49,011 nucleotides of DNA, from the UHGV virus genome UHGV-1353889, one strand, 5' to 3'. Both the position numbers and the translations under genes were made by a program. Under the pieces are notes generated by a model that saw nothing but the letters and a program-made list of their open reading frames with translations, was not told the DNA's origin and made no database searches. Every line of letters begins with the position of its first letter. Positions within the stretch are counted from its first letter, which is position 1. Of the stretch, positions 4,040 through 46,574 are shown piece after piece. This DNA comes from a virus.

Positions 4040-4050
4040 AGGCGATACCG

Positions 4051-5736: not shown

Positions 5737-5817
5737 CTTTCTCCTGTTCTTTGTGCTGATTGAGCATTTTGTTCATCTGACGAATGAATTCTTCGTCTGA
5801 CCAGTTATCTGTAAAAC

Positions 5818-19826: not shown

Positions 19827-21238
19827 CCTCGATTAATCCTATCTTTGAACCGTTCATTGAGGCGCATCGCTACAAAGTCGCCAAAGGCGGTCGAGGTAGC
19901 GGTAAATCATGGGCAATTGCGAGACTGCTTGTTGAAGCGGCGCGTCGGCAGCCTGTGCGCATCCTCTGTGCTCGTGAACTGCAAAACAGTATCAGCGATT
20001 CGGTAATCCGGTTGCTTGAAGACACCATAGAGCGGGAAGGGTATTCGGCCGAGTTTGAAATTCAGCGTTCCATGATTCGTCATCTCGGAACGAATGCTGA
20101 ATTCATGTTCTACGGCATCAAAAACAACCCGACGAAGATTAAATCGCTCGAAGGCATTGATATCTGCTGGGTGGAAGAAGCGGAAGCGGTAACGAAGGAA
20201 TCGTGGGATATCCTGATACCAACCATCCGTAAGCCGTTCTCTGAAATATGGGTAAGCTTCAACCCGAAAAACATACTCGACGATACCTATCAGCGGTTCG
20301 TCGTAAATCCTCCCGATGATATTTGCCTGCTGACGGTGAACTACACCGACAATCCGCACTTTCCTGAAGTTCTCCGTCTGGAGATGGAAGAGTGTAAACG
20401 CAGAAATCCGACACTGTATCGTCACATCTGGCTTGGTGAGCCGGTAAGCGCAAGTGATATGGCAATCATCAAACGTGAATGGCTTGAAGCTGCTACCGAT
20501 GCGCACAAGAAACTCGGATGGAAAGCGAAAGGCGCGGTTGTTTCTGCGCATGACCCATCAGACACAGGGCCAGATGCTAAAGGTTACGCATCGCGTCACG
20601 GTTCGGTAGTTAAGCGCATTGCCGAAGGCCTGCTGATGGACATCAACGAGGGCGCTGACTGGGCTACTTCTCTGGCGATTGAAGACGGCGCTGACCACTA
20701 CTTGTGGGATGGTGATGGTGTTGGTGCAGGTCTACGCAGACAGACAACGGAAGCGTTCTCCGGTAAGAAAATCACCGCCACGATGTTCAAGGGCAGCGAA
20801 TCGCCATTCGATGAGGATGCGCCTTATCAGGCCGGAGCATGGGCTGATGAAGTCGTGCAGGGCGACAACGTTCGCACTATTGGCGATGTATTCCGCAATA
20901 AGCGAGCGCAATTCTATTACGCGCTGGCTGACAGGCTTTATCTGACATATCGGGCGGTTGTCCACGGTGAGTATGCAGACCCCGACGACATGCTGAGCTT
21001 CGACAAAGAAGCGATAGGCGAGAAGATGCTGGAGAAGCTGTTTGCAGAACTGACGCAGATTCAGCGCAAATTCAATAACAACGGGAAGCTGGAGCTAATG
21101 ACTAAGGTCGAAATGAAGCAGAAGCTCGGTATTCCATCTCCTAACCTGGCTGATGCGCTGATGATGTGTATGCATTGCCCGGAGTCGGCTGCGCAAACCG
21201 ACTATTCCAGTTACTCAATTCCTTGTGGTGTAGGTTGA
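19823..21238 (+). CDS. Terminase large subunit
   Basis: 471 aa; Walker A KVAKGGRGSGKS, nuclease-domain acidic residues; the nested minus-strand ORF 19907..20551 is rejected. Confidence 0.85.
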   Translation: MTSINPIFEPFIEAHRYKVAKGGRGSGKSWAIARLLVEAARRQPVRILCARELQNSISDSVIRLLEDTIEREGYSAEFEIQRSMIRHLGTNAEFMFYGIKNNPTKIKSLEGIDICWVEEAEAVTKESWDILIPTIRKPFSEIWVSFNPKNILDDTYQRFVVNPPDDICLLTVNYTDNPHFPEVLRLEMEECKRRNPTLYRHIWLGEPVSASDMAIIKREWLEAATDAHKKLGWKAKGAVVSAHDPSDTGPDAKGYASRHGSVVKRIAEGLLMDINEGADWATSLAIEDGADHYLWDGDGVGAGLRRQTTEAFSGKKITATMFKGSESPFDEDAPYQAGAWADEVVQGDNVRTIGDVFRNKRAQFYYALADRLYLTYRAVVHGEYADPDDMLSFDKEAIGEKMLEKLFAELTQIQRKFNNNGKLELMTKVEMKQKLGIPSPNLADALMMCMHCPESAAQTDYSSYSIPCGVG

Positions 21239-21239
21239 T

Positions 21240-23438
21240 ATGGCAGAAAAAAAGATGACTGACTGGCATCGCAAGGTGCTGTGCAACTTTGATAATGCCT
21301 GGTCAGCAACGCAGGATATGCGTGAGCAGATTATTGAGGCTCAACGTTTCGTACGGGTGTCCGGCGCACAGTGGGAAGGCAGCACAAACGCTGGTTACTC
21401 ATTTGATGAGGGCAGGTTTGAGCATTACCCGCGCTTTGAGCTGAATAAGATCGCCCGTGAATGTGATCGCATCATTGGTGAGTATCGACAGAATCGCATC
21501 AGCGTTAAATTCAGGCCGAAGGACGATAAGGCATCGGAAGCGTTAGCCGAAAAGATGAACGGCAAATTCCGCGCTGACTATCAGGAAACATCCGGTGGCG
21601 AAGCGTGTGATAACGCATTTGATGATGCTGTAACGGGCGGATTCGGTTGTTTCCGCATGTGTGCTGATTACGAGGATGAAATGGATCCGAGTAACGAGCA
21701 GCGACGCATCAGCCTTCTTCCTGTTTACGACCCAGCGACATGCGTCTTCTTCGATCAGGACAGCAAGCAATATGACCGCTCTGATGCTATGTGGGCTATG
21801 GAAATGTTCTCCATGACGCCTAAAGCGTTCGAGGCTGAATACCCTGATTCCATTGCGGCAAGCCTTTCTCGTGATGACACTGGTACTCAGTATGACTGGT
21901 CAACGCCCGATGCCATCTATGTTGGACGCTACTACGAAGTTCGCATAGAGAAGGTGAAGCTCACGGCGTGGCGCAATCCTGTCAGCGGAGAAACAGCAAT
22001 CTATGATGAAGAGCAAATCAAAGATATTGTCGACGAGCTAACCGATGGCGCATTCGAACTGATTGGTGAGCGGACAGTGAAGAAACGCCGAGTTTATTGC
22101 GGTCTTCTGTCTGGCGCTGAATGGCTGGAAGAACCGAAGCGCATTCCGGGCGAACATATTCCTCTCATCCCGGTATATGGGCGTCGTTCATTTGTTGATA
22201 ATCAGGAGCGAATCGAAGGCCACGCAGCAAAAGCGATGGATGCACAGCGTCTTGAGAACCTGATGGTTTCCATGATTGCAGATAACGCCACTCAGGCTGG
22301 CGGTGATGGCATTCCTATCGTGGATGTTGATTTCATTCCCGGCCCATTAATGAATTACTGGGCAGAGAGGAATAAGAATAGACCTGCAGTTCTTCCTATG
22401 ACCAGCAAGAAGGACAAAAACGGAACAGTCATTTCAGAAGCTCAGGTTGCTGGCTGGACACCTCCGACACAAATGCCTCCAGCTCTTGCCGGGCTATTGC
22501 AGTACACCGGAACGGCTATTCAGCAAATTACAGGCGCGTCGCAGCTTGAGAACATGCCGAGCAACGTCGCTACCGATACCGTTGATAGCATCTTTAACCG
22601 GATGGATACGCAGTCCTATATCTACATGGACAACATGGCTAAATCCATGCGTCGCGCTGGCGTTGTGTGGCTTTCTATGGCGCGTGAAGTCTATGGCAGC
22701 GATACGCCGATGCGTATCGTTAATGAGGACGGCAGCGATGACGTGGCGCTGATGACTGGTGAAGTTGTTGACCGTCAGACAGGGCAGGTTATCGCGCTTA
22801 ATGACCTTTCGCAGGGCAACTATGAAGTGACTGTCGATGTTGGTCAGTCGTTCGCTACTCGCCGTGATGCAACGGTTAAGTCGTTACTTTCCATGCTGGC
22901 ACTTATCCCACCAGGAACGCCGAAGCACGACCTTGTATCGTCGATGATTCTCGACAATATGGACGGCGAAGGGATGGACGACCTTAAAGAATACAATCGC
23001 AATCAGTTGCTTCTGTCTGGAGTTATCAAGCCGAGAACGCCAGAAGAACAGCAAATGGTTGAGCAGGCGAAACAACAACAGGCCAGTCAGCCAGATCCGG
23101 CTATGGTTGCTGCGCAAGGTCAGCTTCTTGCTGGTCAGGCTGAATTGCAGAAAGCGCAGAACGAACAAGCAGCCATTCAGGTTAAAGCATTCCAGGCACA
23201 GACGGATGCTCAGGTTGCTGCGGCAAATGTTGTGAAAATCCTCGCATCTGCCGATAGCCAGCAAAAATCTGATATCCGTGAGGCGCTGAAACTGCTCGGA
23301 CAGTTCCAGCAACAGCAGGGAGATAATGCCCGTTCTGATGCAGAGCTTGTCTTGAAAAGTCAGGCACAGGGCCATGCGCAGCGCATGGACATCAGCAGCA
23401 TCCTGCAAAAATCAACTCAGCAACAACCACAGCAGTAA
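21240..23438 (+). CDS. Portal protein (P22 gp1-like)
   Basis: 732 aa; Gln-rich C-terminal helical tail typical of P22-type portals. Confidence 0.8.
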   Translation: MAEKKMTDWHRKVLCNFDNAWSATQDMREQIIEAQRFVRVSGAQWEGSTNAGYSFDEGRFEHYPRFELNKIARECDRIIGEYRQNRISVKFRPKDDKASEALAEKMNGKFRADYQETSGGEACDNAFDDAVTGGFGCFRMCADYEDEMDPSNEQRRISLLPVYDPATCVFFDQDSKQYDRSDAMWAMEMFSMTPKAFEAEYPDSIAASLSRDDTGTQYDWSTPDAIYVGRYYEVRIEKVKLTAWRNPVSGETAIYDEEQIKDIVDELTDGAFELIGERTVKKRRVYCGLLSGAEWLEEPKRIPGEHIPLIPVYGRRSFVDNQERIEGHAAKAMDAQRLENLMVSMIADNATQAGGDGIPIVDVDFIPGPLMNYWAERNKNRPAVLPMTSKKDKNGTVISEAQVAGWTPPTQMPPALAGLLQYTGTAIQQITGASQLENMPSNVATDTVDSIFNRMDTQSYIYMDNMAKSMRRAGVVWLSMAREVYGSDTPMRIVNEDGSDDVALMTGEVVDRQTGQVIALNDLSQGNYEVTVDVGQSFATRRDATVKSLLSMLALIPPGTPKHDLVSSMILDNMDGEGMDDLKEYNRNQLLLSGVIKPRTPEEQQMVEQAKQQQASQPDPAMVAAQGQLLAGQAELQKAQNEQAAIQVKAFQAQTDAQVAAANVVKILASADSQQKSDIREALKLLGQFQQQQGDNARSDAELVLKSQAQGHAQRMDISSILQKSTQQQPQQ

Positions 23439-23528
23439 TTAACCCATAACGTGCAATGGCTGTCTTTATGAGGCCTGGCACCCTATTGCCTTCCGATGGG
23501 CTGAACATCGAGTAAACAGGGGTAACAA

Positions 23529-24422
23529 ATGGACCAGATGGCAGAAAACACACCAGAAGTTGAAATCGAAACCGACGCGTCAGAGCAGATTCCTGATGAT
23601 GTCGAACTGGCTGAAGAAGTCGAAACAGAAGATGGCAGTGAGTCCTCCGGTAATGATGCAGAGGAAGCTACTGAAACTGATGACGACGAATCAAAACAGG
23701 AATTCTACTTTGGTGACGAAAAGCTGGATTCGCCAACCAGCGAAGATGGAGCTGAGCATGGACTGGTAAAACACTTGCGCAAGACGATTAAAGAGAAAGA
23801 CCGCGAGCTGAAAGAGCTGATGCGTCAGTCTCAGAAACCCGTCGAGCAGCAGCCGGTAATCACTCAACCACCGCGAATGCCAAAACTGGACGATGAGGAC
23901 ATCGGTTTCGATGAAGAAATCTACCAGCAACGCATGGCTAAGTGGGCAGAGGATAACGGCAAGTACCAGCAACAGGAGATGGCTCGCAAGCAGAAGGAGC
24001 AGGAGCTTCAGGCTGCCTATCAAGATCGATTATCCAAATATCAGCAACGTGTTAAGGCTCTCAAGGTTCCTGGCTATCAGGAAGCAGAACAGGCCGTACT
24101 CGAGGAAATCCCCATCGAGACACAAAACGCGATCCTGTTTGAGTCAGAGAAGCCGGAAATCGTTGTTCTGGCACTCGGTCGCAACGCTGAACTGCGCAAG
24201 CAACTGGCAGAAGCTACCAACCTCGTAGCAATTGGTCGTCTGCTGGAACGTATCGAATCGAAGGCCAGAATCATGCCAAAAGCAAAAACCACGGCAGCCA
24301 CAACCCCGACAGTTAAGGGGAGCAACGGCGCAGTAATCAACAACCTAGACAAATTGAAAGCCAAGGCGCTGGAAACTGGTGACTGGACGCCGTATTTCGC
24401 CGCTAAAAAGGCAAAAAAATAA
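23529..24422 (+). CDS. Scaffolding protein
   Basis: 297 aa, highly charged helical protein between portal and coat. Confidence 0.6.
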   Translation: MDQMAENTPEVEIETDASEQIPDDVELAEEVETEDGSESSGNDAEEATETDDDESKQEFYFGDEKLDSPTSEDGAEHGLVKHLRKTIKEKDRELKELMRQSQKPVEQQPVITQPPRMPKLDDEDIGFDEEIYQQRMAKWAEDNGKYQQQEMARKQKEQELQAAYQDRLSKYQQRVKALKVPGYQEAEQAVLEEIPIETQNAILFESEKPEIVVLALGRNAELRKQLAEATNLVAIGRLLERIESKARIMPKAKTTAATTPTVKGSNGAVINNLDKLKAKALETGDWTPYFAAKKAKK

Positions 24423-24440
24423 CCTATCGGAGCATTAAGC

Positions 24441-25694
24441 ATGGCTAACCAATTAGCAAAAGACCTTGAAATCATGTTCGAAAACTACGTTGAAGGCTTT
24501 GAGGCCGCCTGCGTAGTTTCCCGTAACGCTAAAAAATTCCGTCCCGGTGATACTGCAATGCAGCGAGCAGGTGATGTTCTGTATCGTCCGCAGCATTACC
24601 ACATGAACATTGAGGAAGGCCTCGACCTCAGCGGAAAAACGCCTACAGCACTGGTTCAGCGCCTTGTTCCTTCAGTGTTCAAGGAGCCGAAAAACATTCT
24701 GTACACTCTGGATGCGCGTGAAATGCGTGACCCGGAACATAAAACTGAAGCTGGTCGCGCCGCAGGTATGCGCCTTGCTGCACAGATTGACTCTGACCTG
24801 ATTTCCATGGTCACGCAGCGTGCTACTAACGTGATCACAATGGCTGACTCAACCACTGGTTCACAGGGCCGTGATTTGTGGAACTGTGCGGCAGGTATTG
24901 ATGCCACCATGACGGCGATTGGCGTACCTCAGGGGATCAACCGTCGCTCTTTCTGGAACCCCTTCAACTACAAAGACCTTGCTGGCGAGCTTGGTCACCG
25001 TGCCTATGCTCAGGGCGCAACCCTGACAGCATACGAAAAAGCGCAGATCCCTCCGGTTGCGTCATTCGATAGCTACAAGACCGATATTTCTGGTCGTGTT
25101 CCGAAGGGTACAGCAACTTCCCTGACGCTGGCGGCTGAACCTGCGCACAAGGTTGAAGCGAAAGATGCCAACGATATGCCAGTGGATAACCGACAGGGGA
25201 CCATTACGGTATCTGCATCTGGTTTGCAGGTTGGCGATGCGTTCACCATTGCTGGCGTGAATTCCGTACACCAGATCACCAAAGATACCACCGGGCAGCC
25301 GCAGGTATTCCGCGTTCTGGCAGTAAGCGGAACGACAGTAACTATCTCCCCGAAAATTCTGCCGCCTGACAACGCGGATGTCGCCAGCCGACCATATGCA
25401 AACGTTGATGCTAACGCGGCAAATAGCGCAGCAATCACCATTCTCAACAAGAATGCTGCACCGGCTAACCTGTTCTGGGCTGATGGTTCTGTTGAGCTGA
25501 TGTACGGCAAACTGGCGTTCCCGACTGGTCAGGGTCCACAGGTAATGACAGCAACCACCGAGCAGGGCGCTACGCTGATCATGTCTTACGCCTTCGACCA
25601 CATCAAAGGCGTAACCACTGCTCGTTTCACCACTCTGTACGGTTGCTCTGTACTTGTTCCTGAATATACGGGCATCGTTATTGCCGGGCAGTAA
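24441..25694 (+). CDS. Major capsid (coat) protein, P22-like
   Basis: 417 aa in coat position with strong RBS. Confidence 0.7.
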   Translation: MANQLAKDLEIMFENYVEGFEAACVVSRNAKKFRPGDTAMQRAGDVLYRPQHYHMNIEEGLDLSGKTPTALVQRLVPSVFKEPKNILYTLDAREMRDPEHKTEAGRAAGMRLAAQIDSDLISMVTQRATNVITMADSTTGSQGRDLWNCAAGIDATMTAIGVPQGINRRSFWNPFNYKDLAGELGHRAYAQGATLTAYEKAQIPPVASFDSYKTDISGRVPKGTATSLTLAAEPAHKVEAKDANDMPVDNRQGTITVSASGLQVGDAFTIAGVNSVHQITKDTTGQPQVFRVLAVSGTTVTISPKILPPDNADVASRPYANVDANAANSAAITILNKNAAPANLFWADGSVELMYGKLAFPTGQGPQVMTATTEQGATLIMSYAFDHIKGVTTARFTTLYGCSVLVPEYTGIVIAGQ

Positions 25695-31005: not shown

Positions 31006-33113
31006 GTTTACCAGAGGGGTTTGTTCTGGATGAACAGCCTGATAACTCACAGCTTCCTGATGGCTTTGTGCTTGATGCACAACCAGAACAGCAGCAATCT
31101 CCTTTGGTTTCACTAGAGGAAAATTCCAGACAGGAAAATGTTGTTAATAATGCTAACGGCTTCGACCGTTTTATGTATGGCGTTCTCAGTGGATTGATGG
31201 ATGTTGGTAAAGGTGTTGGCCTGTTTCAGGACATGACACCAGAAGAGCAAGCCGCAATTCAGTCTCTACAGCAGAAGTTAGCGGCAAAACCATCAACCGC
31301 ACAAGATGTTGGTGAGTTCGTTGGACAAGCAGCGCCATTTGTTAGTGGTGGTGGGATTATTTCTCAGGTTCCGAAAGGGGCGGCAAGGCTGGCTGCCGCC
31401 GCAGGGCTTGGTGCTGGAGAAGGGGCTATTGTAGCCAATGGAACAAATAGCGATGTTGCTTCCGGCGCTGCTATTGGCGCTGTGGCTGGCCCTGTAGCCG
31501 AGATTGTTGGTCCAGCGCTTGGGAAGATTGCAGGAAAAATTAAAAATAGTGCCGGAGATATTTATCGCTCATCCGTAGGGATGGGTAGTAAATCATCTAA
31601 AGCAACGTTAAAGAAAGCTGCTGGCGCAATGGACAATAAATTTATCGGCGGGCAACGAGCTATTCAAGATTTCGCCGATGAAGTTAATCCTGATTTTAAC
31701 GCGATAAATGCTATTCGTGAGCTAGAACTGGAAAATTATGCCACTCCAGGCATGATCTCTAATAATCCTGCTGTCAGGGCTCTTGATAATGCAGTGGCAA
31801 GTCTCCCTGGAACAGAGATTAGTGAGGCGCATAAGCGTTTTATTACTGAATTAGGAAGAAAAGCTGATGAAATGATAACTTCATTTGGGGGAAGCCTTGA
31901 TAAGCAACTGGTTTCTGACAGGCTTGCAGATAATTTTGATAAAACCATTTCATCATTACAAAATCAGTCAGATAACATCTACAACAAAATTGCCGAAAAG
32001 GTTCCTGTAAGAGACCGGATTGAGGCAACTAATACATTGAATTTTTTAGAGGATTTTGCTGATGACATAGGTGGAATTGATGAATTATCTCCAATAATGA
32101 AGCGGACATTGAACCGACTTGATCCAAACACCTTGCCAACGTATGGGCGTTTAGATCTCGCTAGAAAGCAGGTTGGACAAGCTATTGGCAAAGGCTCTGG
32201 TCCATTCAAGGATGAAGAAACAGGTGTTCTTAAAAAGTTATATGCAGCCATAACAGATGACCAACAGGCTGTCGCAGAAAAATATGGCGCAGGGGAATTA
32301 TGGACGCTTGGTAAGGAGTTGGTAAAAAAACGAAAATCCATTGAAGATGATGCTGTAACCGTCTTGGGTAGAAAACTTCAGCAATCAGCAATTCCAAAAG
32401 TTGAAAGTGCTGTTGTTAATATGGCAAAAGGAAACGGTGGCGACTTTAGGCAATTAATGAAGTCGATTCCAAAGGATATGCGGCAGGAAGTTGCGCTCAC
32501 CTCAATGAATAAAGCATTTACCAGCTATGCCAAATCACCTGGTCAGCAATTAGGAGTTGATGGATTTGTAAAATGGTATAACGGAATGTCACGCAATGGG
32601 GCCAATATGAAGGCTCTCCGTGATGCTATTGGCACAGATGCATCAAAGCGCCTTGATACGATTTATCAAGCAGCTAAGGCTATGAATAGACTCAATACTG
32701 GTAAGCAGTATGCTAGTAGTCTTGTGGATCAGCAAGTTAATAACTTTCTGAAAGAAAAGGGTAGTCTCGCAAAAATTTATGGAATAGCCTCAAAAGCTGC
32801 TGCGGCGGAAGGTATTACAAGCTTATCTGGTCTCCCTGGTGTAGGTGCAACAGGGGTGATAACGTCTGCATTGATGTCAGGGAAAACAAGCAGGATAAAG
32901 GCTGCTGATGCTCTGCTATCTTCTCCTGAGTTTAAATCAATGCTATTTCGCCTGCAAAACGCACCAGTAGACAGAGCAGAAGTGAGACGCGCAATAGAAA
33001 GGAAACTGATGCAATCTGGGGCATTTAAGAGATGGGAGAAAACCTTATCAACAGATGAAGCAAAAACCATTGCCCGCACGGGGATTATTACATGGCTCGC
33101 TAGTGACAGTTAG
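30990..33113 (+). CDS. Ejection protein, gp16-like
   Basis: 707 aa, last gene of ejection cassette. Confidence 0.5.
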
Positions 33114-33337
33114 TCAACTTTGGTTATTTTGCCTTCTTTTTCTTGATGAACTTTGCATCCATCATCTTTTGATAGCCAAACTAAAAACTTTAAAACCTTA
33201 AACACAAGTACGGCTACTGCAATGAAAGCACCAATCGAAATTATTGCTAGTGAAATTATTTGCATTGGTGCTTTTAATGCAGGGAAAATAGTGTAAATGA
33301 TCGCGAAAACAGTAATTATGAGGAACCATCGCTTCAC
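33110..33337 (-). CDS. Small two-helix membrane protein (sieA-position accessory gene)
   Basis: 75 aa with two hydrophobic helices; divergent from the Panacea-like gene. Confidence 0.4.
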   Translation of the reverse strand: MKRWFLIITVFAIIYTIFPALKAPMQIISLAIISIGAFIAVAVLVFKVLKFLVWLSKDDGCKVHQEKEGKITKVD

Positions 33338-33705: not shown

Positions 33706-34155
33706 GTGTTCATGCTTACTTGTTTTGATGTCGCCGACTACTTCCTGTCGCGGTGTGACGAGGATAGCGGTGACACAATCTCTAATTTAAAATTACAAAA
33801 GCTTGTTTACTATGCTCAGGGTTTTTCATTGGCGTTGCTTGGCGAGCCTCTTTTTCAGAATAAGATGGAAGCTTGGATGCATGGCCCTGTTGTCCCTGAG
33901 CTTTATCGCCGTTATAAACAATATGGTAATGGCGCTATCCCTTCTCCAGAGTCTTTTGATGCTGAAAAATTCAGCGAAGAACAGTTAGAGCTATTAGAAG
34001 AAGTCTGGGATGTTTTTGGGCAATTTTCTGCCTGGAAACTGAGGAACATGACACACGAAGAGTCACCATGGAGATCAAACTATATTGAGGGTGTTGGTGG
34101 TTCTGAAATTAGCTCTAAGGAGATGGCAGAGTACTTTGCAACTCGGATTAACTAA
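33706..34155 (+). CDS. Panacea (DUF4065/COG3600)-like domain protein, putative antitoxin/adaptor
   Basis: 149 aa; NLKLQKLVYYAQG ... EAWMHGPVVPELY matches my recollection of the DUF4065 signature. Confidence 0.6.
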   Translation: MFMLTCFDVADYFLSRCDEDSGDTISNLKLQKLVYYAQGFSLALLGEPLFQNKMEAWMHGPVVPELYRRYKQYGNGAIPSPESFDAEKFSEEQLELLEEVWDVFGQFSAWKLRNMTHEESPWRSNYIEGVGGSEISSKEMAEYFATRIN

Positions 34156-34159
34156 CGAG

Positions 34160-34579
34160 ATGGCAAGAAAATCTAAAAGGATTATCCCCCCTGCTGAATC
34201 TACAGGTAAGTTAAAGTTAGGGCCGCAGTCAGGGGGGAATTCAGATCAAAAGAAACCGAAGTTTTCATTCTGTTACATCCAAAGCTCTCACTGCATAACG
34301 AAATGCCAAAAAGATGAGAAAGCTGGCTTAGCTGATAAATTATACAGATTAAGTCAACTAACATGGGCAGAGATTAAGCAGCAAGGTAGGCATAAGCTTG
34401 GATTTGAGAAGATTGCAAGGGGTGCAATTAAAGCAGGTATCCCCAGTCATATAACGGAAGACGTAGATCATTTCTTGGCTTTTAGATTTGATGATTTGAA
34501 AGCCATGGTTGGTTATCGTCTTGGATCGACATTTTTTGTTATATGGCTTGATAGAGAGTTCAACCTATACAAGCACTAA
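34160..34579 (+). CDS. Uncharacterized 139-aa partner of the Panacea-like gene (candidate toxin/effector)
   Basis: ATG 5 nt after upstream stop; basic disordered N-terminus, C-terminal beta-rich segment YRLGSTFFVIWLD; terminator follows. Confidence 0.5.
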   Translation: MARKSKRIIPPAESTGKLKLGPQSGGNSDQKKPKFSFCYIQSSHCITKCQKDEKAGLADKLYRLSQLTWAEIKQQGRHKLGFEKIARGAIKAGIPSHITEDVDHFLAFRFDDLKAMVGYRLGSTFFVIWLDREFNLYKH

Positions 34580-34582
34580 TAA

Positions 34583-34607
34583 AACCCACCGTCAGGTGGG
34601 TTTTTTA
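34583..34607. terminator. Bidirectional intrinsic terminator
   Basis: Hairpin AACCCACCGTCAGGTGGGTT flanked by A-run upstream and T-run downstream. Confidence 0.65.
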
Positions 34608-34631
34608 TAAGGAGTAATCATGATTTACCCA

Positions 34632-35168
34632 TCAAACAACCCACCAGTTTGCCTGATTGGATGCCAGCCTTGCAGTTTTTATGGAATTAATTATGCCATG
34701 CTCAAGAGCCTTGTTAGCATCCAAAATGGTCGAGTCTGCTATCAGGGATGCCCACCTAATATGGGTTCCGATGTCGATATTGAACGTCTCAACGAAGCGA
34801 TCAAGATCGTTATCGAGGCATTTCCCGTACTCTCTCAGTCTGGCATGGTCGGCGGCTGGGGTGGCAAAGCCCCATAATAGAGGATGTAACAGGAATCTTG
34901 ATAATGGGTTTGCGAAACGTTCTGAGCCAGCCAGGAAAACGATATTAGCTATGGATTCAACATTGCTTATGTTGTGAGTTCTAACGGTAACAGGGAGTGA
35001 CTTAAGAAAGTTATACGCAGTAAAACCAGCGGCAGTTTCCCCTCCCTGACTTGATATATGGATATTTAATTCAGTTGCGCCTTGAGATAATGCGGTGAGA
35101 CAGTGGTTCTGAAGTTGCCCAACAGTGGCGGTGTTAACGGGGCATAAGAAATGAATTGTGTGCAGCAT
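34632..35168 (-). CDS. ClpP-like (S14-family fold) serine peptidase homologue
   Basis: 178 aa; ISSQGGETAAG parallels ClpP INSPGGVITAG; candidate triad Ser (VESIA), His (LLHPL), Asp (ILDAN); start overlaps mnt stop (TAATG). Confidence 0.6.
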   Translation of the reverse strand: MLHTIHFLCPVNTATVGQLQNHCLTALSQGATELNIHISSQGGETAAGFTAYNFLKSLPVTVRTHNISNVESIANIVFLAGSERFANPLSRFLLHPLLWGFATPAADHARLREYGKCLDNDLDRFVETFNIDIGTHIRWASLIADSTILDANKALEHGIINSIKTARLASNQANWWVV

Positions 35169-35416
35169 TATTTATCATCCTTACCATACATGGTTTTCAG
35201 CGTCTCCAGCAGCGCCTCTTTGAATTTGTCAGCTTCTTGCTGAGCAAATGACTCAACTGACTTTGGCGACCTATCTTCATCAATCGCGGCTTGCAAAATC
35301 ATGACGATCTCGGAGTTAACAGAGCGACCATTTTTTGATGCTCTAACAGCAAGAGCCTCGCGTAAAGATTCAGGGATTCTTACCGTAGTTGGAGAAATTG
35401 ACACACCCTTTGCCAT
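35168..35416 (-). CDS. mnt: Mnt-like repressor (ribbon-helix-helix)
   Basis: 82 aa; NGRSVNSEI RHH motif, same length as P22 Mnt. Confidence 0.7.
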   Translation of the reverse strand: MAKGVSISPTTVRIPESLREALAVRASKNGRSVNSEIVMILQAAIDEDRSPKSVESFAQQEADKFKEALLETLKTMYGKDDK

Positions 35417-35530
35417 AACACACCTTTGGTATTCAATTTGATATCAAAGTGTATGCAAAAAAATTTTGACTAGATATACTCACTTTGCTATCTTTTGTAT
35501 TCGAAAAGAGTTGTTTGTGTGGAGGGTAAC
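35417..35530. promoter_or_regulatory. Divergent immI promoter/operator region (mnt versus arc-ant)
   Basis: Palindrome TTTGATATCAAA and further inverted repeats between divergent RHH repressor genes. Confidence 0.45.
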
Positions 35531-35683
35531 ATGGAGAAAGAAATAAGTAAGATTTTGGTAAGGATGCCGCAGTCGTTAAAGGATGCTATCGGTAGCAGGG
35601 CAAAGGAAGAGTGCAGGTCGTTTAACTCAGAGGTTATCAAGCGCCTGATAGACAGCCTGAAGAAAGAGGGGGTGGCGATATGA
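35531..35683 (+). CDS. arc: Arc-like repressor (ribbon-helix-helix)
   Basis: 50 aa from ATG at 35531 with GGAGGG RBS; CRSFNSEVIKRLIDSLKKEGV parallels P22 Arc. Confidence 0.7.
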   Translation: MEKEISKILVRMPQSLKDAIGSRAKEECRSFNSEVIKRLIDSLKKEGVAI

Positions 35684-35862
35684 ATAAAGAAGATGGCTTT
35701 AAGTGCTCCTTCTGCGGAAAGCCTCAGCATGAATGTGCAATGTTGATTCGCGCTAAAGCAGAGATATTTATCTGTAGTGGTTGTGTATCTCTTTGCGTTG
35801 AAGCGATGGGGAAAGAGTTAAATTCTAGAAAAACAATGTTAGATGTGAACATAAAACAGTGA
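35680..35862 (+). CDS. ClpX N-terminal zinc-binding-domain-like protein (ZBD only)
   Basis: 60 aa; [10 protein letters not shown] ... [10 protein letters not shown] parallels ClpX ZBD CSFCGKSQHE ... YICDECVDLC; ATGA overlap with arc stop. Confidence 0.6.
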
Positions 35863-35924
35863 AGCCCCAACTGCGGGAACAGTCAGGGCTTCGGTTGTCA
35901 GTAAATCCGTGGAGAAAAACCAAC

Positions 35925-36827
35925 ATGAATAGTATAGCAATTTTAGAAGCAGTGAACACCTCTTACGTACCATTCAACGGTCAGCAAATTATCACCGCCA
36001 TGGCTGCCGGAGTTGCATATGTTGCGATGAAGCCAATCGTTGAAAACCTCGGAATGAGCTGGGGTACTCAGCAACAAAAACTTATGAAACAACTAGATAA
36101 GTTCAAATGTATTCATATGAATATGGTTGCTGCTGATGGAAAGCTTCGTAAGCTACTCTGCCTTCCTTTGAAGAAGTTAAATGGATGGCTGTTCAGCATC
36201 AACCCTGAGAAAGTTCGTGCTGACATCCGTGATAAACTGATTCAGTACCAGGAAGAATGCTTTACTGTACTGCATGACTACTGGACAAAGGGAAAGGCAG
36301 AAAATGCACGTAAGAAAACATCTGTTGATGACAGGACTCCGCTTCGTGATGCTGTAAATATGCTAGTCAGCAAAAAGCATCTAATGTACCCAGAAGCTTA
36401 TGCAATGATTCATCAGCGTTTCAATGTGGAAAGTATTGAAGAGCTTGATGCATCTCAGATACCGCAAGCCGTAGAGTACATCCACAGGGTAGTGCTTGAA
36501 GGTGAATTTATCGGCAAACAAGAGAAGAAAACCAACGAGTTTTCTGCAAAAGAAGCAAACAGCCTTGTATGGTTATGGGATTATGCCAACCGTTCACAGG
36601 CATTATTCCGCGAACTGTATCCGGCATTAAAACAAATTCAATCGAACTATTCCGGCAGATGCTACGACTACGGTCATGAGTTCTCGTATGTTATCGGAAT
36701 GGCGAGGGACGTTTTAATCAATCACTCACGAGATGTTGATATCAATGAGCCAGACGGACCAACGAATCTTTCCGCATGGATGAGACTTAAGAATAAAGAA
36801 TTACCTCCTTCAATACATAACTACTGA
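35925..36827 (+). CDS. ant: Antirepressor Ant
   Basis: 300 aa from ATG at 35925 (GGAGA RBS), same length as P22 Ant; follows arc in immI arrangement. Confidence 0.65.
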
Positions 36828-37005: not shown

Positions 37006-39951
37006 ATGACAGACATTACAGCCAATGTTGTAGTGAGTATGCCTTCGCAACTCTTCACTATGGCGCGTTCTTTTAAAGCAGTTGCCAATGGCAAAATTTA
37101 TATCGGTCAGGTTGACACTGACCCGGTAAATCCTGAAAACCAGATTCAGGTTTATGTAGAGAACGAAGACGGCTCGCACGTTCCTGTTTCGCAACCAATC
37201 ATCATTAACGCTGCTGGATATCCGGTATATAACGGACAGATTGCCAAATTCGTAACCGTGCAAGGCCATTCTATGGCTGTTTATGATGCGTATGGTACAC
37301 AGCAGTTCTATTTTCCTAATGTGCTGAAGTATGATCCTGATCAGTTACGGCAGCAATTAGAAGACCCAGATGGAGCGAATAAATACCCAAAACTTCAGAT
37401 AGCAAGATGGAGAGACAGTTATGATGTAAGAGGTTGGGGGGCTATTGGTGATGGTGTTCATGATGATACATCAGCTCTATCAGAATTACTTTCTGTTGCA
37501 ACAGGTGGTGAAAAGATAGATGGGCGAGGGCTTACTTTTAAAGTATCAACTCTTCCAGATGTCAGTCGATTTAAAAATGCTCGTTTTTTATTTGAGAGAA
37601 TACCGGGTCAGCCTCTTTTTTATGCTTCTGAAGATTTTATCCAGGGAGAGTTATTTAAAATTACAGATACACCGTGGTACAACGCCTGGACGCAGGATAA
37701 AACGTTTGTATATGACAATGTCATCTATGCGCCTTTTATGGCTGGAGACCGCCATGGTGTAAATAACCTCCATGTTGCATGGGTTCGCTCAGGAGATGAC
37801 GGGAAGACCTGGACAACGCCGGAATGGCTTACAGATTTACATGAAAACTATCCCACAGTTAACTATCACTGCATGAGTATGGGGGTTGTCAGAAATCGCC
37901 TTTTTGCTGTAATTGAGACGCGGACCGTGAGCGGAAATAAACTGCAGGTTGCAGAGTTGTGGGATCGCCCAATGAGTCGCAGCCTTCGCGTTTATGGTGG
38001 TATAACGAAAGCAGCAAATCAGCAAGTCGCTTATATTCGCATTACTGATCACGGATTATTTGCTGGTGATTTTGTCAACTTCTCAAACTCTGGTGTTACA
38101 GGTGTTACCGGGAATATGACGGTGACTACTGTTATTGATAAAAATACTTTTACAGTTACGACGCAAAATACCCAGGATGTGGATCAGAATAACGAGGGTA
38201 GATACTGGAGTTTTGGTACATCATTTCACTCGTCACCATGGAGAAAAACCAGTCTTGGAACTATTCCTTCTTTTGTTGACGGAAGCACTCCTGTTACTGA
38301 GATTCACAGTTTTGCGACGATTAGCGATAACAGTTTTGCTGTTGGCTACCATAATGGTGATATTGATCCACGCGAGCTTGGGATACTCTATTTCTCTGAT
38401 GCTTTCGGTTCTCCTGGTAGCTTTGTTCGCAGACGCATACCTGTAGAATATGAGGCGAATGCATCTGAGCCATGTGTAAAATATTATGATGGCATTCTGT
38501 ATCTGACGACCAGGGGGACATTAAGTACTCAACCCGGTAGTTCATTGCACAGAAGCTCTGATTTAGGTACATCATGGAATTCTCTTCGCTTCCCAAATAA
38601 TGTTCATCACTCAAACCTTCCTTTTGCCAAAGTTGGCGATGAGCTGATTATTTTTGGCAGTGAGCGCGCATTTGGTGAGTGGGAAGGAGGAGAACCTGAT
38701 AACCGTTATGCAGGAAATTATCCAAGAACATTTATGACCAGAGTTAACGTCAATGAGTGGAGTCTGGATAATGTAGAGTGGGTTAATGTTACTGATCAGA
38801 TTTATCAGGGCGGAATAGTTAACTCTGCGGTTGGTGTTGGTTCAGTTTGTATCAAAGACAACTGGCTGTACTACATTTTCGGTGGGGAAGACTTTCTAAA
38901 CCCATGGAGCATAGGGGATAACAACAGAAAATATCCTTATGTTCACGATGGTCACCCGGCTGATTTGTATTGTTTCAGGGTGAAAATTAAACAGGAAGAA
39001 TTTGTTTCAAGGGATTTTGTCTACGGAGCCACTCCTAACAGAACGCTTCCTACTTTTATGTCGACGTCAGGCGTGAGGACGGTTCCTGTACCCGTTGATT
39101 TCACAGATGATGTTGCCGTCCAGTCACTGACTGTCCATGCAGGTACATCAGGAAAAGTTCGCGCGGAAGTCAAACTTGAGGGTAATTACGCCATTATTGC
39201 GAAGAAAGTACCGTCTGATGATGTTACCGCTCAGAGATTAATCGTTAGCGGCGGTGAAACAACGTCTTCAGCAGATGGTGCAATGATAACGTTGCATGGT
39301 TCCGGAAGCAGTACTCCACGTCGCGCGGTATATAACGCACTCGAACATCTTTTTGAGAACGGAGATGTTAAACCTTATCTTGATAATGTAAATGCTCTTG
39401 GTGGTCCGGGAAACAGGTTCTCGACAGTTTATCTTGGCTCCAATCCTGTGGTTACCAGTGACGGAACATTAAAGACAGAGCCGGTCTCTCCTGACGAAGC
39501 ATTGCTGGATGCCTGGGGTGACGTCAGGTATATCGCTTATAAATGGCTGAACGCTGTCGCTATAAAGGGGGAAGAAGGGGCGAGGATACATCATGGTGTA
39601 ATCGCGCAGCAACTTCGTGATGTTCTTATTTCTCACGGACTCATGGAAGAAGAAAGCACAACATGCCGCTATGCGTTTCTTTGCTATGACGATTATCCCG
39701 CAGTATATGATGACGTCATTACTGGCCAAAGGGAAATGCCGCTGACTGATAATGACGGGAGCATCATTGTTGATGAGGATGATAATCCAGTGATGGTAAT
39801 GGAAGACATCATTGAGCGCGTTGAAATAACGCCAGCAGGATCTAGATGGGGGGTCAGACCTGATCTCTTATTCTATATCGAGGCGGCATGGCAGCGCAGA
39901 GAAATAGAAAGAATAAAAGCTAGGTTAGACTTAATAGAAGGGAAGCACTAA
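37006..39951 (+). CDS. Tailspike: P22 gp9-type head-binding domain fused to endosialidase-like Asp-box domain and C-terminal intramolecular-chaperone domain
   Basis: 981 aa; N-terminus matches P22 tailspike head-binding domain; Asp-boxes SGDDGKTW and SSDLGTSW; C-terminal self-cleaving chaperone-like module. Confidence 0.75.
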
Positions 39952-40240: not shown

Positions 40241-40360
40241 AGGCTTTGTGCTCTTCGATAGTTGTTAAGGCGGATCACTCTACCTTCTCATCAATCCAGT
40301 CCGCCCACCACTGCATCATTTCTCTGCGCTTATCGAGATACTGAGCATGGTTGTAAATTC
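40241..40360. repeat. Right copy of 120-bp direct repeat (integrase 3'-end fragment)
   Basis: 118/120 identical to 1-120; encodes last ~28 codons of integrase with an in-frame stop just upstream. Confidence 0.8.
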
Positions 40361-40429: not shown

Positions 40430-40660
40430 CTCAGGTCACTAATACTATCTAAGTAGTTGATTCATAGTGACTGGATATGTTGTGTTTTGTAGTATTATGC
40501 AGTCTATTATTTAGACTAAACCCTTCATAACATATTGATATTTACAGTGTTTTCTGTTTCTCGTTCAGCTTTTTTATACTAAGTTGGCATTATAAAAAAG
40601 CATTGCTTATCAATTTGTTGCAACGAACAGGTCACTATCAGTCAAAATAAAATCATTATT
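40430..40660. other. Lambda-type attachment site with P-arm-like, core (GCTTTTTTATACTAA at 40568-40582) and P'-arm sequences, i.e. attP-like rather than attL
   Basis: Core 15-mer exact; right flank matches lambda P' arm into int; left flank resembles lambda P arm (CAGGTCACTAATAC ... TTCTCGTTCAGC). Confidence 0.8.
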
Positions 40661-41726
40661 TGATTTCAATTTTGTCCCACTCCCTGCCTCTGTCATCACG
40701 ATACTGTGATGCCATGGTGTCCGACTTATGCCCGAGAAGATGTTGAGCAAACTTATCGCTTATCTGCTTCTCATAGAGTCTTGCAGACAAACTGCGCAAC
40801 TCGTGAAAGGTAGGCGGATCCCCTTCGAAGGAAAGACCTGATGCTTTTCGTGCGCGCATAAAATACCTTGATACTGTGCCGGATGAAAGCGGTTCACGAC
40901 GAGTAGATGCAATTATGGTTTCTCCGCCAAGAATCTCTTTGCATTTATCAAGTGTTTCCTTCATTGATATCCCGAGAGCATCAACATGCAATGCTGTTGG
41001 GATGGCAATTTTTACGCCTGTTTTGCTTTGCTCGACATAAAGATATCCATCTACGATATCAGACCACTTCATTTCGCATAAATCACCAACTCGTTGCCCG
41101 GTAACAACAGCCAGTTCCATTGCAAGTCTTAGCCAATATGGTGATGATTCTGCTGCTTGATAAATTTTCAGGTATTCGTCAGCCGTAAGTCTTGATCTCC
41201 TTACCTCTGATTTTGCTGCGCGAGTGGCAGCGACCGGGTTTGTTGTTATATGGCCTTCAGCTATTGCCTCTCGGAATGCATCGCTCAGTGTTGATCTGAT
41301 TAACTTGGCTGACGCAGCCTTGCCCTCGTCTATGTATCCATTGAGCATTGCCGCAATTTCTTTTGTGGTGATGTCTTCAAGTGGAGCATCAGGCAGACCC
41401 CTCCTTATTGCTTTAATTTTGCTCATGTAATTTATGAGTGTCTTCTGCTTGATTCCTCTGCTGGCGAGGATTTTTTCGTAGCGATCAAGCCATGAATGTA
41501 ACGTAACAGAATTATCACTGTTGATTCTCGCTGTCAGAGGCTTGTGTTTGTGTCCTGAAAATAACTCAATGTTGGCCTGTATAGCTTCAGTGATTGCGAT
41601 TCGCCTGTCTCGGCCTAATCCAAACTCTTTACCCGTCCTTGGGTCCCTGTAGCAGTAATATCCATTGTTTCTTATATAAAGGTTAGGGGGTAAATCCCGG
41701 CGCTCATGACTTCGCCTTCTTCCCAT
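40656..41726 (-). CDS. int: Integrase (lambda Int)
   Basis: 356 aa, near-identical to lambda Int as I recall it. Confidence 0.95.
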   Translation of the reverse strand: MGRRRSHERRDLPPNLYIRNNGYYCYRDPRTGKEFGLGRDRRIAITEAIQANIELFSGHKHKPLTARINSDNSVTLHSWLDRYEKILASRGIKQKTLINYMSKIKAIRRGLPDAPLEDITTKEIAAMLNGYIDEGKAASAKLIRSTLSDAFREAIAEGHITTNPVAATRAAKSEVRRSRLTADEYLKIYQAAESSPYWLRLAMELAVVTGQRVGDLCEMKWSDIVDGYLYVEQSKTGVKIAIPTALHVDALGISMKETLDKCKEILGGETIIASTRREPLSSGTVSRYFMRARKASGLSFEGDPPTFHELRSLSARLYEKQISDKFAQHLLGHKSDTMASQYRDDRGREWDKIEIK

Positions 41727-44258: not shown

Positions 44259-44536
44259 GATTTACTCTCCACGAACTGGTCAATAGCCATGCTAAGTGAT
44301 ACACCTAAAGTCTCGATATGCTGCTGAATATCCTGTAGCGTCTGCGCCTGAGATAACAGGATTTCACGGTTGCATAACTCTTTGACCAGATGCTCAAACT
44401 TGCTGTAATAACCGATACGGCTTAGTGTTTCTTTCCCTGCATTCTCACCTTCTTTGATAATTCCTCTTTCATTAAGAATCAGGTCGTGTTTTGTTCCAGT
44501 AATAACGTATTTACCGAGGTCGATGTTTAGCTTCAT
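44255..44536 (-). CDS. Hypothetical protein (insertion relative to element 1)
   Basis: 93-aa ORF present only in element 2 between the 55-aa and 104-aa genes. Confidence 0.4.
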
Positions 44537-44552
44537 TGTTAATTACTCCATG

Positions 44553-44867
44553 TTAATTTATTTGTATGCCTGCTCTTTTTTCATCGAGTTTTTTTAGCTT
44601 GTATCGCATAGCTCTTACTGAATAAATTGAGCGGCAGGTTGCAATTGCTATTTCTTCTGCGGAGAACTTACCGAAAAGTGATACTTCGGCTCTTGTCCAG
44701 CGTCTTCCACGAAGTCGGCTAACAATGTCAGCGCCAATCCTTGTTGCTTTCGCCATTACTGCTTTTTCAGTCCTTTCCAGTTTTTCAGCGATAACTTCAA
44801 CTGGCATTGTCGCCGCTACTTCGCGTAAGAAATCGACTTCCCATTTCTCCCAAGGAGTCTTTTTCAT
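44553..44867 (-). CDS. Conserved phage protein, putative DNA-binding (copy of 3725..4039)
   Basis: 104 aa, 3 substitutions near C-terminus relative to element 1. Confidence 0.45.
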   Translation of the reverse strand: MKKTPWEKWEVDFLREVAATMPVEVIAEKLERTEKAVMAKATRIGADIVSRLRGRRWTRAEVSLFGKFSAEEIAIATCRSIYSVRAMRYKLKKLDEKRAGIQIN

Positions 44868-44878
44868 AGGCGATACCG

Positions 44879-45367
44879 TTATTTGATAAGAAGTGAAGGT
44901 TTCCCAACTTTGAGTTGAGCACCGGGGATATTTATTCCTGCTTTTAGTTGGTGTTTGATTGCCAGTTTGTCGGCTTTAATTGTCGTTTCGAACTCAACGT
45001 ATTCAGGAGGAAGGGCGCTTGAGTCGATGATTTCTACAGTTTCTGACGGTTTGCGGATTGTTACCTGGTGAATACCTGCTCGAATCTTTTTCTTTCCAAC
45101 CATTTCAAGCGATGACGCTATATACGTCATAATGCTATCAATCTTATTTTGAATTACTGCTGCTCTTTCATTCAGTGACTTTGCCTCTTCCTTGAGGCGT
45201 TCAGCATAACCAGACTCATTTTTAATGATGGCAAGAAGTTGCTCTATTTTATCGGTAAATTCTCCTTCCATGCCTTCTATTGTGTCAGCAATCATCTCTG
45301 GTTCTAAATCTGAATCCATCAATTTTGCGTATTCATTGGCAATTTCATACAGTTTGCTCACTGGCAA
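44879..45367 (-). CDS. Gp157-like protein (copy)
   Basis: Identical to 4051..4539. Confidence 0.5.
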   Translation of the reverse strand: MPVSKLYEIANEYAKLMDSDLEPEMIADTIEGMEGEFTDKIEQLLAIIKNESGYAERLKEEAKSLNERAAVIQNKIDSIMTYIASSLEMVGKKKIRAGIHQVTIRKPSETVEIIDSSALPPEYVEFETTIKADKLAIKHQLKAGINIPGAQLKVGKPSLLIK

Positions 45368-46256
45368 CCTCCAGTTTCGCTTTGCATTCTATGTAAATGG
45401 CTTGTACGTTCTGCTGCAATTTCATTCCAGATGTCAGGCGATATGCTTCTGCAAAATATCGCTTCAAATCATCCATGTTTTCTGCCTGAGCCATTTCATC
45501 ACAAAGAAGTTGTGCTTTATCCGTTATTTCCTGCTGGCGTTTCCGTTCATCTTCGCGGATATCTTCCTCTGATTTGTGCGGCATAACTGGTTCAGTCCAC
45601 ACACCTTCTTCTTCGTTTAGTACGTGAATAGCACTATCAAGACGTGATGCCTTAGGCCAATACTTGCTTGCACGCTTTACGACCGTCTTTCGCGCCATCT
45701 CATTCCAGTGATTTACCCATGGTCCTTTATCGCTGAATGCCGCCTTGCTTGTTTTCCTTACAGCCTCAATTTCAGCCAGACTCATCTCTTCCGTTAGATA
45801 ATCACCTGCTGGCGTCTTAACTGTGCAGTAAACGCCAACGATATCACCACGATCACCGAAGGCGTTGTATTTATGGGTTGGTGCTTTATCAAGCCCGTTT
45901 GACTCATAGGTATCGTTAGCATGAACAAGTTTTGCCTGACCCCATGAGATAACACCAGACTCCATTGCAATATGGAGCAATCCCATATAGCTGATATCAA
46001 GGCAAACCATGCCGTCGCGCGGAACCAGATAAGCCAGTTTGCTAGCCGGGTTTAAGGTGATGCCGATCGCCGCAACATTGATGATGGCGTTCTGTGCGCT
46101 GGTTGGATTTGCCAGTGCCGTTTTAGCCAGGTAATCATTTTTCTGGAAATACTGAATTGCAAACTGGCTTTCCTTAGCCCATGTCACCGTCTGTTCAGTC
46201 AATGCTCCGCAGAATAACTGCTCCTGCTGTTTAACGAATTCAACGATATTGCTCAT
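45345..46256 (-). CDS. RecT-family single-strand annealing recombinase (copy)
   Basis: Identical to 4517..5428. Confidence 0.75.
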   Translation of the reverse strand: MSNIVEFVKQQEQLFCGALTEQTVTWAKESQFAIQYFQKNDYLAKTALANPTSAQNAIINVAAIGITLNPASKLAYLVPRDGMVCLDISYMGLLHIAMESGVISWGQAKLVHANDTYESNGLDKAPTHKYNAFGDRGDIVGVYCTVKTPAGDYLTEEMSLAEIEAVRKTSKAAFSDKGPWVNHWNEMARKTVVKRASKYWPKASRLDSAIHVLNEEEGVWTEPVMPHKSEEDIREDERKRQQEITDKAQLLCDEMAQAENMDDLKRYFAEAYRLTSGMKLQQNVQAIYIECKAKLEVASEQTV

Positions 46257-46564
46257 GCTGCTTCTCCATAAATGTGTCTGCGTTTGAATATTGCGAAGGC
46301 ATATTCAGCCTTAACTCTTTCGGTTATTGCATCCCAGAACCATTCAGCGGCTTTTTCCTGATAGTTACAATCATCATCTTCCAGCCAGTCGATAGCGTCC
46401 TTAGTGTGTTCACCTGGTTTATATGAGCGAAGCATTTCGCTTATTGGGTCGCAACGTTTGCAGAGGCGATCAACTTCACTGTTGATTCGCTCGTAATCTT
46501 CATCAGTAAAACTTGCGATTATTTGCGATATTTCACGCTTATCATTCAGAGTCAGAATCATCAT
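46253..46564 (-). CDS. Hypothetical early protein (copy of 5425..5736)
   Basis: 103 aa with one substitution; track ORF 46253..46672 is an artificial read-through across the N gap. Confidence 0.45.
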   Translation of the reverse strand: MMILTLNDKREISQIIASFTDEDYERINSEVDRLCKRCDPISEMLRSYKPGEHTKDAIDWLEDDDCNYQEKAAEWFWDAITERVKAEYAFAIFKRRHIYGEAA

Positions 46565-46574
46565 CTTTCTCCTG

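Follow-up and report, generated by a model that had tools for sequence, protein, structure and literature searches.

The sequence analyzed here, virus genome UHGV-1353889 (49,011 nucleotides (nt), hereafter the window), presents a P22-like E. coli prophage with an integrase gene at 35..1228 and an immI-type region located between the ejection-protein genes and the tailspike gene. On the minus strand of this region, a gene for a Mnt-like ribbon-helix-helix (RHH) repressor is followed by a gene for a ClpP-like protein of 178 amino acids (aa), which is the subject of this work (Table 1). The position and strand of the open reading frames (ORFs) are exactly those given in a first-pass annotation made from the sequence, which had described the second gene as a ClpP-like peptidase translationally coupled to the Mnt maintenance repressor, shorter than canonical ClpP, and located outside the head module.

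A two-gene operon in the immI region

The first cistron was assigned by domain, homology, and position. The Mnt-like ORF matches the Pfam Arc family (E = 9.6e-11) and is 37.5% identical to P22 Mnt over residues 13-79 (82% of the length, E = 2e-6), and the gene is divergent from arc-ant, in the same position as mnt in the annotated P22 record. The upstream cistron is therefore a P22 Mnt-type repressor, which is predicted to repress Pant. A consensus scan of the immI control region did not locate Pmnt, and only weak -35/-10 candidates are visible by eye; the promoter must lie within this control region. As in P22, the locus has a divergent Pmnt/Pant arrangement with mnt, a second cistron, and then a terminator on one side and arc-ant on the other. 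A strong terminator-type hairpin is also found at 35861..35892 (-), just 5' of the ant start, which corresponds to the position of the P22 sar antisense RNA terminator, so that the phage probably has a sar-like regulator of ant. The two loci differ in the second cistron. In P22, this is the 59-aa orf59a, which is located within the mnt transcript before the mnt terminator and does not overlap mnt, whereas here the equivalent slot is filled by a ClpP-family gene that overlaps the mnt stop codon.

The stop codon of mnt (TAA, 35170..35168) and the start codon of the ClpP-like gene (ATG, 35168..35166) have one base in common (TAATG), and a Shine-Dalgarno (SD)-like AAGGA at 35182..35178 is located within mnt, 9 nt 5' of the ATG. 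The one-base overlap is kept in 43 of 43 Mnt-linked loci from IMG/VR and behind four different Mnt variants. When the junction RNA was folded and compared with shuffled controls, it was found to be less structured (z = +2.3). Because the junction is unstructured, the ribosome-binding site would be freely accessible, and coupling is permitted without being obligatory; the same comparison led us to reject a model in which a hairpin masks the ribosome-binding site and makes coupling obligatory. The proposal of translational coupling thus stands as far as the overlap and the accessible ribosome-binding site are concerned, but not as an obligatory mechanism.

A GC-rich hairpin with A and T runs on either side is found 3' of the ClpP-like ORF. 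It closes both the mnt/clpP-like unit and a convergent Panacea toxin-antitoxin unit, and the record of phage Emek annotates the same element as a rho-independent terminator. The sequence agrees with the earlier description of overlapping genes and, judged by this geometry, mnt and the ClpP-like gene are one transcription unit, which by sequence and RNA fold ends at a hairpin terminator. Two antisense ORFs inside the ClpP-like gene, 34620..34877 and 34657..34977 (+), were rejected, as openness is their sole support.

Table 1. Features of the mnt/clpP-like operon and the adjoining immI region, in window coordinates.
Feature	Position	Strand	Basis and remarks
Bidirectional intrinsic terminator hairpin, AAAACCCACC-GTCA-GGTGGGTTTT	34581..34604	both	10-bp stem; minimum-free-energy fold of the minus-strand RNA
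ClpP-like gene, 178 aa	34632..35168	-	ORF list; Pfam PF00574 match; S14 peptidase subunit of the same type as PpClpP1 (Pseudomonas plecoglossicida ClpP1), short and truncated at the N-terminus
His95 codon, CAT	34884..34886	-	Aligns with E. coli ClpP His122; invariant in 62 homologues
Ser72 codon, TCC	34953..34955	-	Aligns with E. coli ClpP Ser97; invariant in 62 homologues
Coupling junction, GGTAAGGATGATAAATAATG	35166..35185	-	Contains SD-like AAGGA and the mnt stop TAA overlapping the ClpP-like ATG; read from sequence
mnt-like RHH repressor gene, 82 aa	35168..35416	-	First cistron of the operon; Pfam Arc match
Divergent immI control region	35417..35530		Pant-like promoter and palindrome TTTGATATCAAA; layout as annotated in P22
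Pant-like promoter, TTGACT-17-TATCTT	35466..35494	+	Promoter scan
arc-like repressor gene	35531..35683	+	Opposing Pant operon; Pfam Arc, 1.3e-12
ant antirepressor gene	35925..36827	+	Target of Mnt control; Pfam P22_AR_N 7.2e-45, P22_AR_C 4.1e-29; PHROG 245

Family, fold, and active site of the ClpP-like protein

The ClpP-like ORF matched the Pfam CLP_protease family over residues 24-165 with an E value of 4.3e-12 and a score of 46.7 bits (gathering cut-off 20.2). Family alignments were made with 21 and 62 members that are 52-89% identical, plus two at 32-34%, and Ser72 and His95 do not vary in either alignment. The ratio of nonsynonymous to synonymous substitution rates (dN/dS) was 0.08 against a homologue of 80% amino-acid identity and 0.10 against one of 69%. 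Since purifying selection is strong and the two residues are invariant, we consider the ORF a real gene rather than a chance ORF.

An AlphaFold2 model built on 62 homologues gave a predicted local distance difference test score (pLDDT) of 94 and a predicted template modeling (pTM) score of 0.90. In the model, the protein adopts the ClpP alpha/beta fold with a handle helix. A Foldseek search placed it closest to PDB entry 9UXT, with a template modeling (TM) score of 0.94 and a root-mean-square deviation (rmsd) of 1.4 Å. The next-best structural matches were the Listeria ClpP1/2 chains (TM 0.83), and the ClpP structures of E. coli, S. aureus, and other organisms gave TM scores of 0.83-0.85 with an rmsd of about 2 Å. 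The sequence search of the PDB returned the same entry with E = 4e-35 and 40% identity over residues 3-175, as compared to about 3e-8 for the best canonical ClpP. The Pfam, PDB, and Foldseek searches all support the assignment to the ClpP family that the first-pass annotation had made.

To locate the active site, the protein was aligned by BLASTP with mature E. coli ClpP, in a sequence in which S97, H122, D171, and L189 were confirmed at their published numbers. Ser72 aligns with the nucleophile Ser97 and His95 with His122. The column of D171 is occupied by Ser146, and across the family this position is Ser or Ala, so that there is no catalytic Asp; the adjacent Asp145 is not conserved in the family. 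An alignment of the catalytic triad had been suggested as a check on the ClpP assignment, and two of its three residues are kept while the third is replaced throughout the family.

Other differences from canonical ClpP concern the parts that gate the pore or contact ClpX and ClpA. The N-terminus of the protein corresponds to the strand at residues 27-32 of E. coli ClpP, and the Pfam match starts from profile position 37. The first element of the model is the strand formed by residues 2-7 (beta-1), and the N-terminal axial loops, which form the gate, and helix A are missing. The absence of the gate and helix A explains why the protein is shorter than canonical ClpP, as had been observed from its length. 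The pocket of E. coli ClpP into which the IGF/IGL loops dock is formed by Y60, Y62, F82, I90, M92, F112, and L114. The corresponding residues here are N35, H37, S57, H65, I67, F85, and N87, five of which are polar, and most of the five polar replacements are conserved in the family. Other conserved features include a nearly invariant C-terminal W-W-V motif (residues 175-177), where the model has an extra terminal beta-strand (173-177), and the handle-helix residues Asp107, His108, Glu113, Asp121, and Arg124, which are invariant or nearly so. Based on conservation and the predicted fold, the ClpP-like protein is a functional, non-canonical ClpP subunit that is probably catalytic.

The closest characterized relative, represented by 9UXT, is ClpP1 of Pseudomonas plecoglossicida (PpClpP1), which is truncated at the N-terminus and has Ser, His, and Pro in its active site (PMC12900304). 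Cryo-electron microscopy and analytical ultracentrifugation showed that PpClpP1 forms a homo-14-mer with a 42.7 Å pore, and its peptidase activity is 13-fold below that of the canonical paralogue (PMC12900304). A change of the Ser or the His abolishes activity, and a change of the third residue costs only part of it (PMC12900304). ClpX was not pulled down with PpClpP1, and casein and GFP-ssrA were degraded only in the presence of ClpX and canonical ClpP (PMC12900304). Mixed 14-mers of PpClpP1 and canonical ClpP are stable, bind ClpX, and have somewhat higher activity (PMC12900304). The phage protein is a full-length homologue of PpClpP1 (178 versus 183 aa) that likewise starts at beta-1 with neither N-terminal gate nor helix, keeps the Ser and the His with a residue other than Asp in the third triad position, and aligns in the conserved C-terminal Trp region. 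The two differ in the third residue itself, which is Pro in PpClpP1, and in their genetic setting. The PpClpP1 gene is a paralogue on the chromosome of a host that has a second ClpP of its own, whereas the gene described here is phage-borne, forms part of a repressor operon, and reaches a host that has only one ClpP.

A comparable logic is reported for Pseudomonas aeruginosa, where the atypical ClpP2 modulates the assembly of ClpXP (PMC13056064). The ClpP1/ClpP2 pairs of P. aeruginosa (PMC13056064) and Listeria (PDB 4RYF) resemble the present case in concept, in that an accessory ClpP, which by itself does not engage the unfoldase, acts through mixed 14-mers. Unlike the gene described here, these paralogues are host genes under chromosomal regulation rather than prophage cargo, and their sequences are distant (about 20-25% identity).

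Distribution of the module and its genomic neighborhood

Near-identical copies of the ClpP-like gene were found by tblastn in phages phiv205-1, EC.P3, E212, and PhiR12_1/4/5, and copies are present in dozens of IMG/VR contigs. In the lambdoid phage PhiR12_1, a 98.9% identical copy is located between tail genes L and K, again 3' of a Mnt-like gene, and another P22-like contig (L070) carries an 80% identical copy that is arranged in the same way, with a P22-type mnt gene 5' of it. Across P22-like and lambdoid phages, the ClpP-like gene is preceded by no fewer than four kinds of Mnt whose DNA-binding halves are unrelated. When such loci are compared with the window, DNA identity climbs to near 100% some 36-80 nt 5' of the ClpP-like ATG. 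This rise indicates that the last ~12 codons of mnt (ETLKTMYGKDxK, including the ribosome-binding site) and the ClpP-like gene form one recombination module. The module is present in about 135 of 5,426 complete E. coli genomes (about 2.5%), always on the chromosome, and the carriers include K1 avian pathogenic E. coli (APEC) and clinical human isolates.

Other genes can take the same place. In Emek, the slot 3' of mnt holds a small membrane protein and another ORF, and in L070 the ClpP-like gene is stacked with an Emek-type membrane protein on the same strand. From these comparisons of gene order, the position 3' of mnt is a cargo slot. The conserved membrane protein of 73-77 aa (MxxQQGSP...FDWKMAVCL...), found at 4232..4837 of L070 and 2681..3120 of the Emek locus (L023), is an alternative or additional cargo. 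The module also decays through the activity of insertion sequences (IS). In E. coli FY26 (L026, 1733..3512), an IS3 element removes the 5' end of the ClpP-like gene, and in phage E212 (L025, 2996..3513), an IS remnant replaces mnt, arc, and most of ant, leaving the last mnt codons and an intact ClpP-like gene.

More distant relatives are arranged differently. Those of 52-75% identity, from prophages of Pantoea, Erwinia, Proteus, Rahnella, Klebsiella, and other E. coli, stand alone among tail or terminase genes, in most cases on the other strand, which fits a function that does not need a phage partner. Relatives from Massilia, Telluria, and Methylotenera have ordinary chromosomal surroundings. 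No RHH neighbor was detected beside relatives of 34-60% identity (20 genome loci) or beside the viral relatives of 52-75% identity; a Mnt/RHH partner conserved across the family was thus ruled out, and the linkage is limited to the clade of at least 80% identity. An exhaustive search returned eight clusters (50% identity) at E values up to 1e-30 and 525 at E values up to 1e-10. Many of the best cluster matches are proteins of 180-190 aa aligned from their first residues, and short ClpP proteins are a sizeable, little-studied group.

Annotations of the gene are not uniform. The PGAP label is "ATP-dependent Clp protease proteolytic subunit," the phiv205-1 record annotates an identical gene as "head maturation protease," and the best PHROG match is phrog_94 "head maturation protease" (4.9e-21). 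The ClpP-related head-protease models of NCBIfam, NF045542 and NF045540, gave 49.7 bits against a cut-off of 120 and 51.4 bits against a cut-off of 475, and the protein therefore falls below both. True phage head proteases are 26-29% identical to it with E values of about 1e-6. The best relatives are stand-alone proteins of 178-190 aa located outside head modules. The head module of the window (19823..25694, +) encodes a terminase, a P22-type portal, a scaffold, and a P22-type coat, with no protease gene, and the ClpP-like gene is found about 9 kb downstream on the opposite strand. The P22 scaffold leaves the procapsid intact, and P22-type capsids assemble without proteolysis. ClpP-related prohead proteases, such as those of Streptococcus phage 315.1 and the protease/scaffold fusions of Shiga toxin (Stx) phages, have the S14 fold and the Ser-His core in common with the ClpP-like protein. 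However, the genes of these proteases belong to the head module, where they are flanked by the portal and coat genes and transcribed late, and their products often carry a fused scaffold or capsid domain; none of this applies here. We therefore regard the "head maturation protease" label on this gene as a recurring mis-annotation, which is corrected here.

Several neighboring genes were examined as well. Between arc and ant, the ORF at 35680..35862 (+) encodes a 60-aa stand-alone ClpX C4 zinc finger with all four Cys (Pfam PF06689, 7.6e-11), a predicted product of the Pant operon that might imitate the N-domain of ClpX or titrate it. Because the ClpP-like gene, this zinc-finger ORF, and the Panacea/SocA-like pair described below are three Clp-flavored elements in a stretch of about 2.2 kb, a coordinated system was considered, which was then not supported. 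A search with a concatenated query found the zinc-finger allele and the ClpP-like gene together in 1 of 137 matching E. coli genomes, and the allele is rare, occurring in few of the 5,426 E. coli genomes. Across the 43 loci, the slot between arc and ant holds a 57-aa protein in 12, is empty in 12, holds other zinc ribbons in 11, and is of the window type in one. The other zinc ribbons had no significant match to the ClpX zinc-finger model; one of them is found in phage CUS-3, which is not among the tblastn matches to the ClpP-like protein. An obligate pair of the ClpP-like protein and the zinc-finger ORF was ruled out by the single co-occurrence and by the independent variation of the slot.

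On the other side of the terminator, a protein with a Panacea/SocA-like antitoxin domain is encoded at 33706..34155 (+; Pfam PF13274, 1.9e-24) and, 3' of it, a 139-aa partner at 34160..34579 (+; phrog_8366) with a weak PADLOC match to NsnC (5.9e-6). These are probably a PanA-type toxin-antitoxin or defense pair. The pair is convergent with the ClpP-like gene, with which it has the terminator in common, and, as a further point against a coordinated system, it accompanies only some copies of the module. A 75-aa ORF at 33110..33337 (-), with two hydrophobic segments by inspection, directly follows an ejection-protein gene in the position of P22 sieA; it is possibly a small membrane exclusion protein, and its PADLOC match is marginal (E = 0.095). 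In the tailspike (gene at 37006..39951, +), the P22 head-binding domain is joined to an endosialidase that is complete and has a chaperone domain at its C-terminus. An endosialidase tailspike implies that K1-capsulated E. coli are the targets of the phage, in agreement with the presence of the module in APEC and clinical human genomes. Finally, a 120-bp repeat of 98% identity (1..120 and 40241..40360) brackets the P22-like prophage as attachment (att) sites would, a second, lambda-type integrase gene (40656..41726) directly follows the repeat, and a 2-kb stretch (44533..46574) repeats early genes of the first prophage (3705..5746) at 99% identity, which suggests two prophages in tandem.

Possible functions in the lysogen

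Our current hypothesis, to which we assign a probability of roughly 0.55, is that the gene encodes an accessory, atypical ClpP subunit that is carried as lysogeny cargo in the mnt operon and remodels Clp proteolysis in the host. From P22 biology and from the annotated Pmnt and operators of P22, we infer that the operon is on in the lysogen; ring formation and action through mixed complexes with host ClpP are proposed from the behavior of PpClpP1. In the lysogen, Pmnt would drive a single mRNA that carries mnt and the ClpP-like gene, and the latter would be translated by ribosomes finishing mnt or by new ribosomes entering at the AAGGA inside mnt. With the Ser-His pair and the ClpP fold retained, the protein should be able to assemble into ClpP-type rings. 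We propose that it could not serve an unfoldase alone because the N-terminal gate and the ClpX/ClpA docking pockets are lost. By analogy to PpClpP1, it would most likely co-assemble with the single canonical ClpP of the host into mixed 14-mers, which would change the output of ClpXP and ClpAP proteolysis in lysogens. The pay-off might be a more stable prophage, the exclusion of other phages, or a fitter host.

Several points weigh against this hypothesis. PpClpP1 is chromosomal and only 40% identical, and the gain in ClpXP activity that it confers is small (PMC12900304). The ClpP-like gene is dispensable, as it is interrupted by IS3 in FY26 and its mnt partner is destroyed in E212. The literature searched ties no phenotype to the gene, and that on phiv205-1 reports whole-prophage phenotypes only.

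The alternative that fares best, although we consider it unlikely, is a stand-alone peptidase that works without an unfoldase as a superinfection-exclusion or anti-phage effector, with gateless rings in the lysogen degrading unfolded or incoming phage proteins. The missing N-terminal gate and the 42.7 Å pore of 9UXT would suit such an activity. It would also be at home in the cargo slot of immI, which we take to be expressed in lysogens, since the neighborhood carries sieA in P22, and cargo of the conflict type adjoins the ClpP-like gene both in the window (the Panacea toxin-antitoxin pair) and in FY26 (a YafO toxin). However, PpClpP1 alone degraded neither casein nor GFP-ssrA despite its wide pore (PMC12900304), and relatives of the ClpP-like protein are also found in the non-phage contexts of Massilia, Telluria, and Methylotenera. 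A search of the protein against PADLOC-DB v2 returned no defense family with an E value up to 0.1, which weakens this alternative further and argues against a known defense system.

A safeguard of lysogeny is more doubtful still. Here, the protein would degrade leaked Ant or another lytic regulator, or aid host ClpXP in doing so, which would explain the coupling to Mnt. The physical and translational linkage to mnt is tight in every copy of at least 80% identity, and ant, under Mnt control, is 750 bp away. Nevertheless, recombination at the conserved 3' end of mnt can account for the linkage, and unrelated small or membrane proteins fill the slot in other P22-like phages. The relatives of 52-75% identity, as lone genes, have neither mnt nor ant nearby, which also leaves the link to Ant levels suggested in the first-pass annotation unsupported.

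We give even less credence to a dominant-negative poison of host ClpP, in which mixed rings would dock ClpX or ClpA poorly, host Clp proteolysis would fall, and some phage or host protein would be stabilized. Such a role could draw on the polar residues at five of the seven mapped docking-pocket positions, on the lost N-terminal loops, and on the precedent of P. aeruginosa, in which an atypical ClpP2 modulates ClpXP assembly (PMC13056064). Yet the catalytic Ser and His are strictly conserved, which would be unexpected for a pure poison, and the mixed complexes in both characterized systems still bind ClpX and are more active (PMC13056064, PMC12900304). Finally, maturation of heads by this protein, as implied by phrog_94 and the phiv205-1 record, was ruled out in practical terms by the NCBIfam scores far under the cut-offs, an identity to real head proteases well below the 40% to a chromosomal ClpP1, a P22-type head module with no protease gene, the location on the opposite strand in the mnt operon, and the occurrence of the same gene between tail genes of a lambdoid phage; in this respect, the first-pass annotation, which had argued against a prohead protease, was correct.

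Returning to the accessory ClpP subunit, parts of the picture were already known, namely the Clp label that PGAP gives the gene and the type of protein, which was characterized in 2026 as PpClpP1. In the literature searched, we found no paper on this gene, on a phage-encoded non-structural ClpP, or on a ClpP in immI. The phage-borne accessory ClpP, its placement in the mnt operon, and its modular spread therefore appear to be new, as no description of them was found. A broader extension, which we offer tentatively and hold with less confidence than the function itself, is that temperate phages of E. coli and other Enterobacterales supply a second, atypical ClpP to hosts with a single ClpP. This would make two-ClpP lysogens in which mixed phage-host 14-mers form the cores of ClpXP and ClpAP, wired to the Mnt circuit such that the phage subunit is on only during prophage quiescence.

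ClpXP and ClpAP govern many regulators of stress, virulence, and phage development. To our knowledge, the tuning of these proteases by accessory ClpP subunits has been worked out only recently and only for chromosomal paralogues. If the hypothesis holds, a phage accessory ClpP expressed together with the repressor that maintains lysogeny would be a new route by which a prophage alters the physiology of its host, and the mnt/clpP-like operon would represent an undescribed form of lysogenic conversion, one that reprograms regulated proteolysis.

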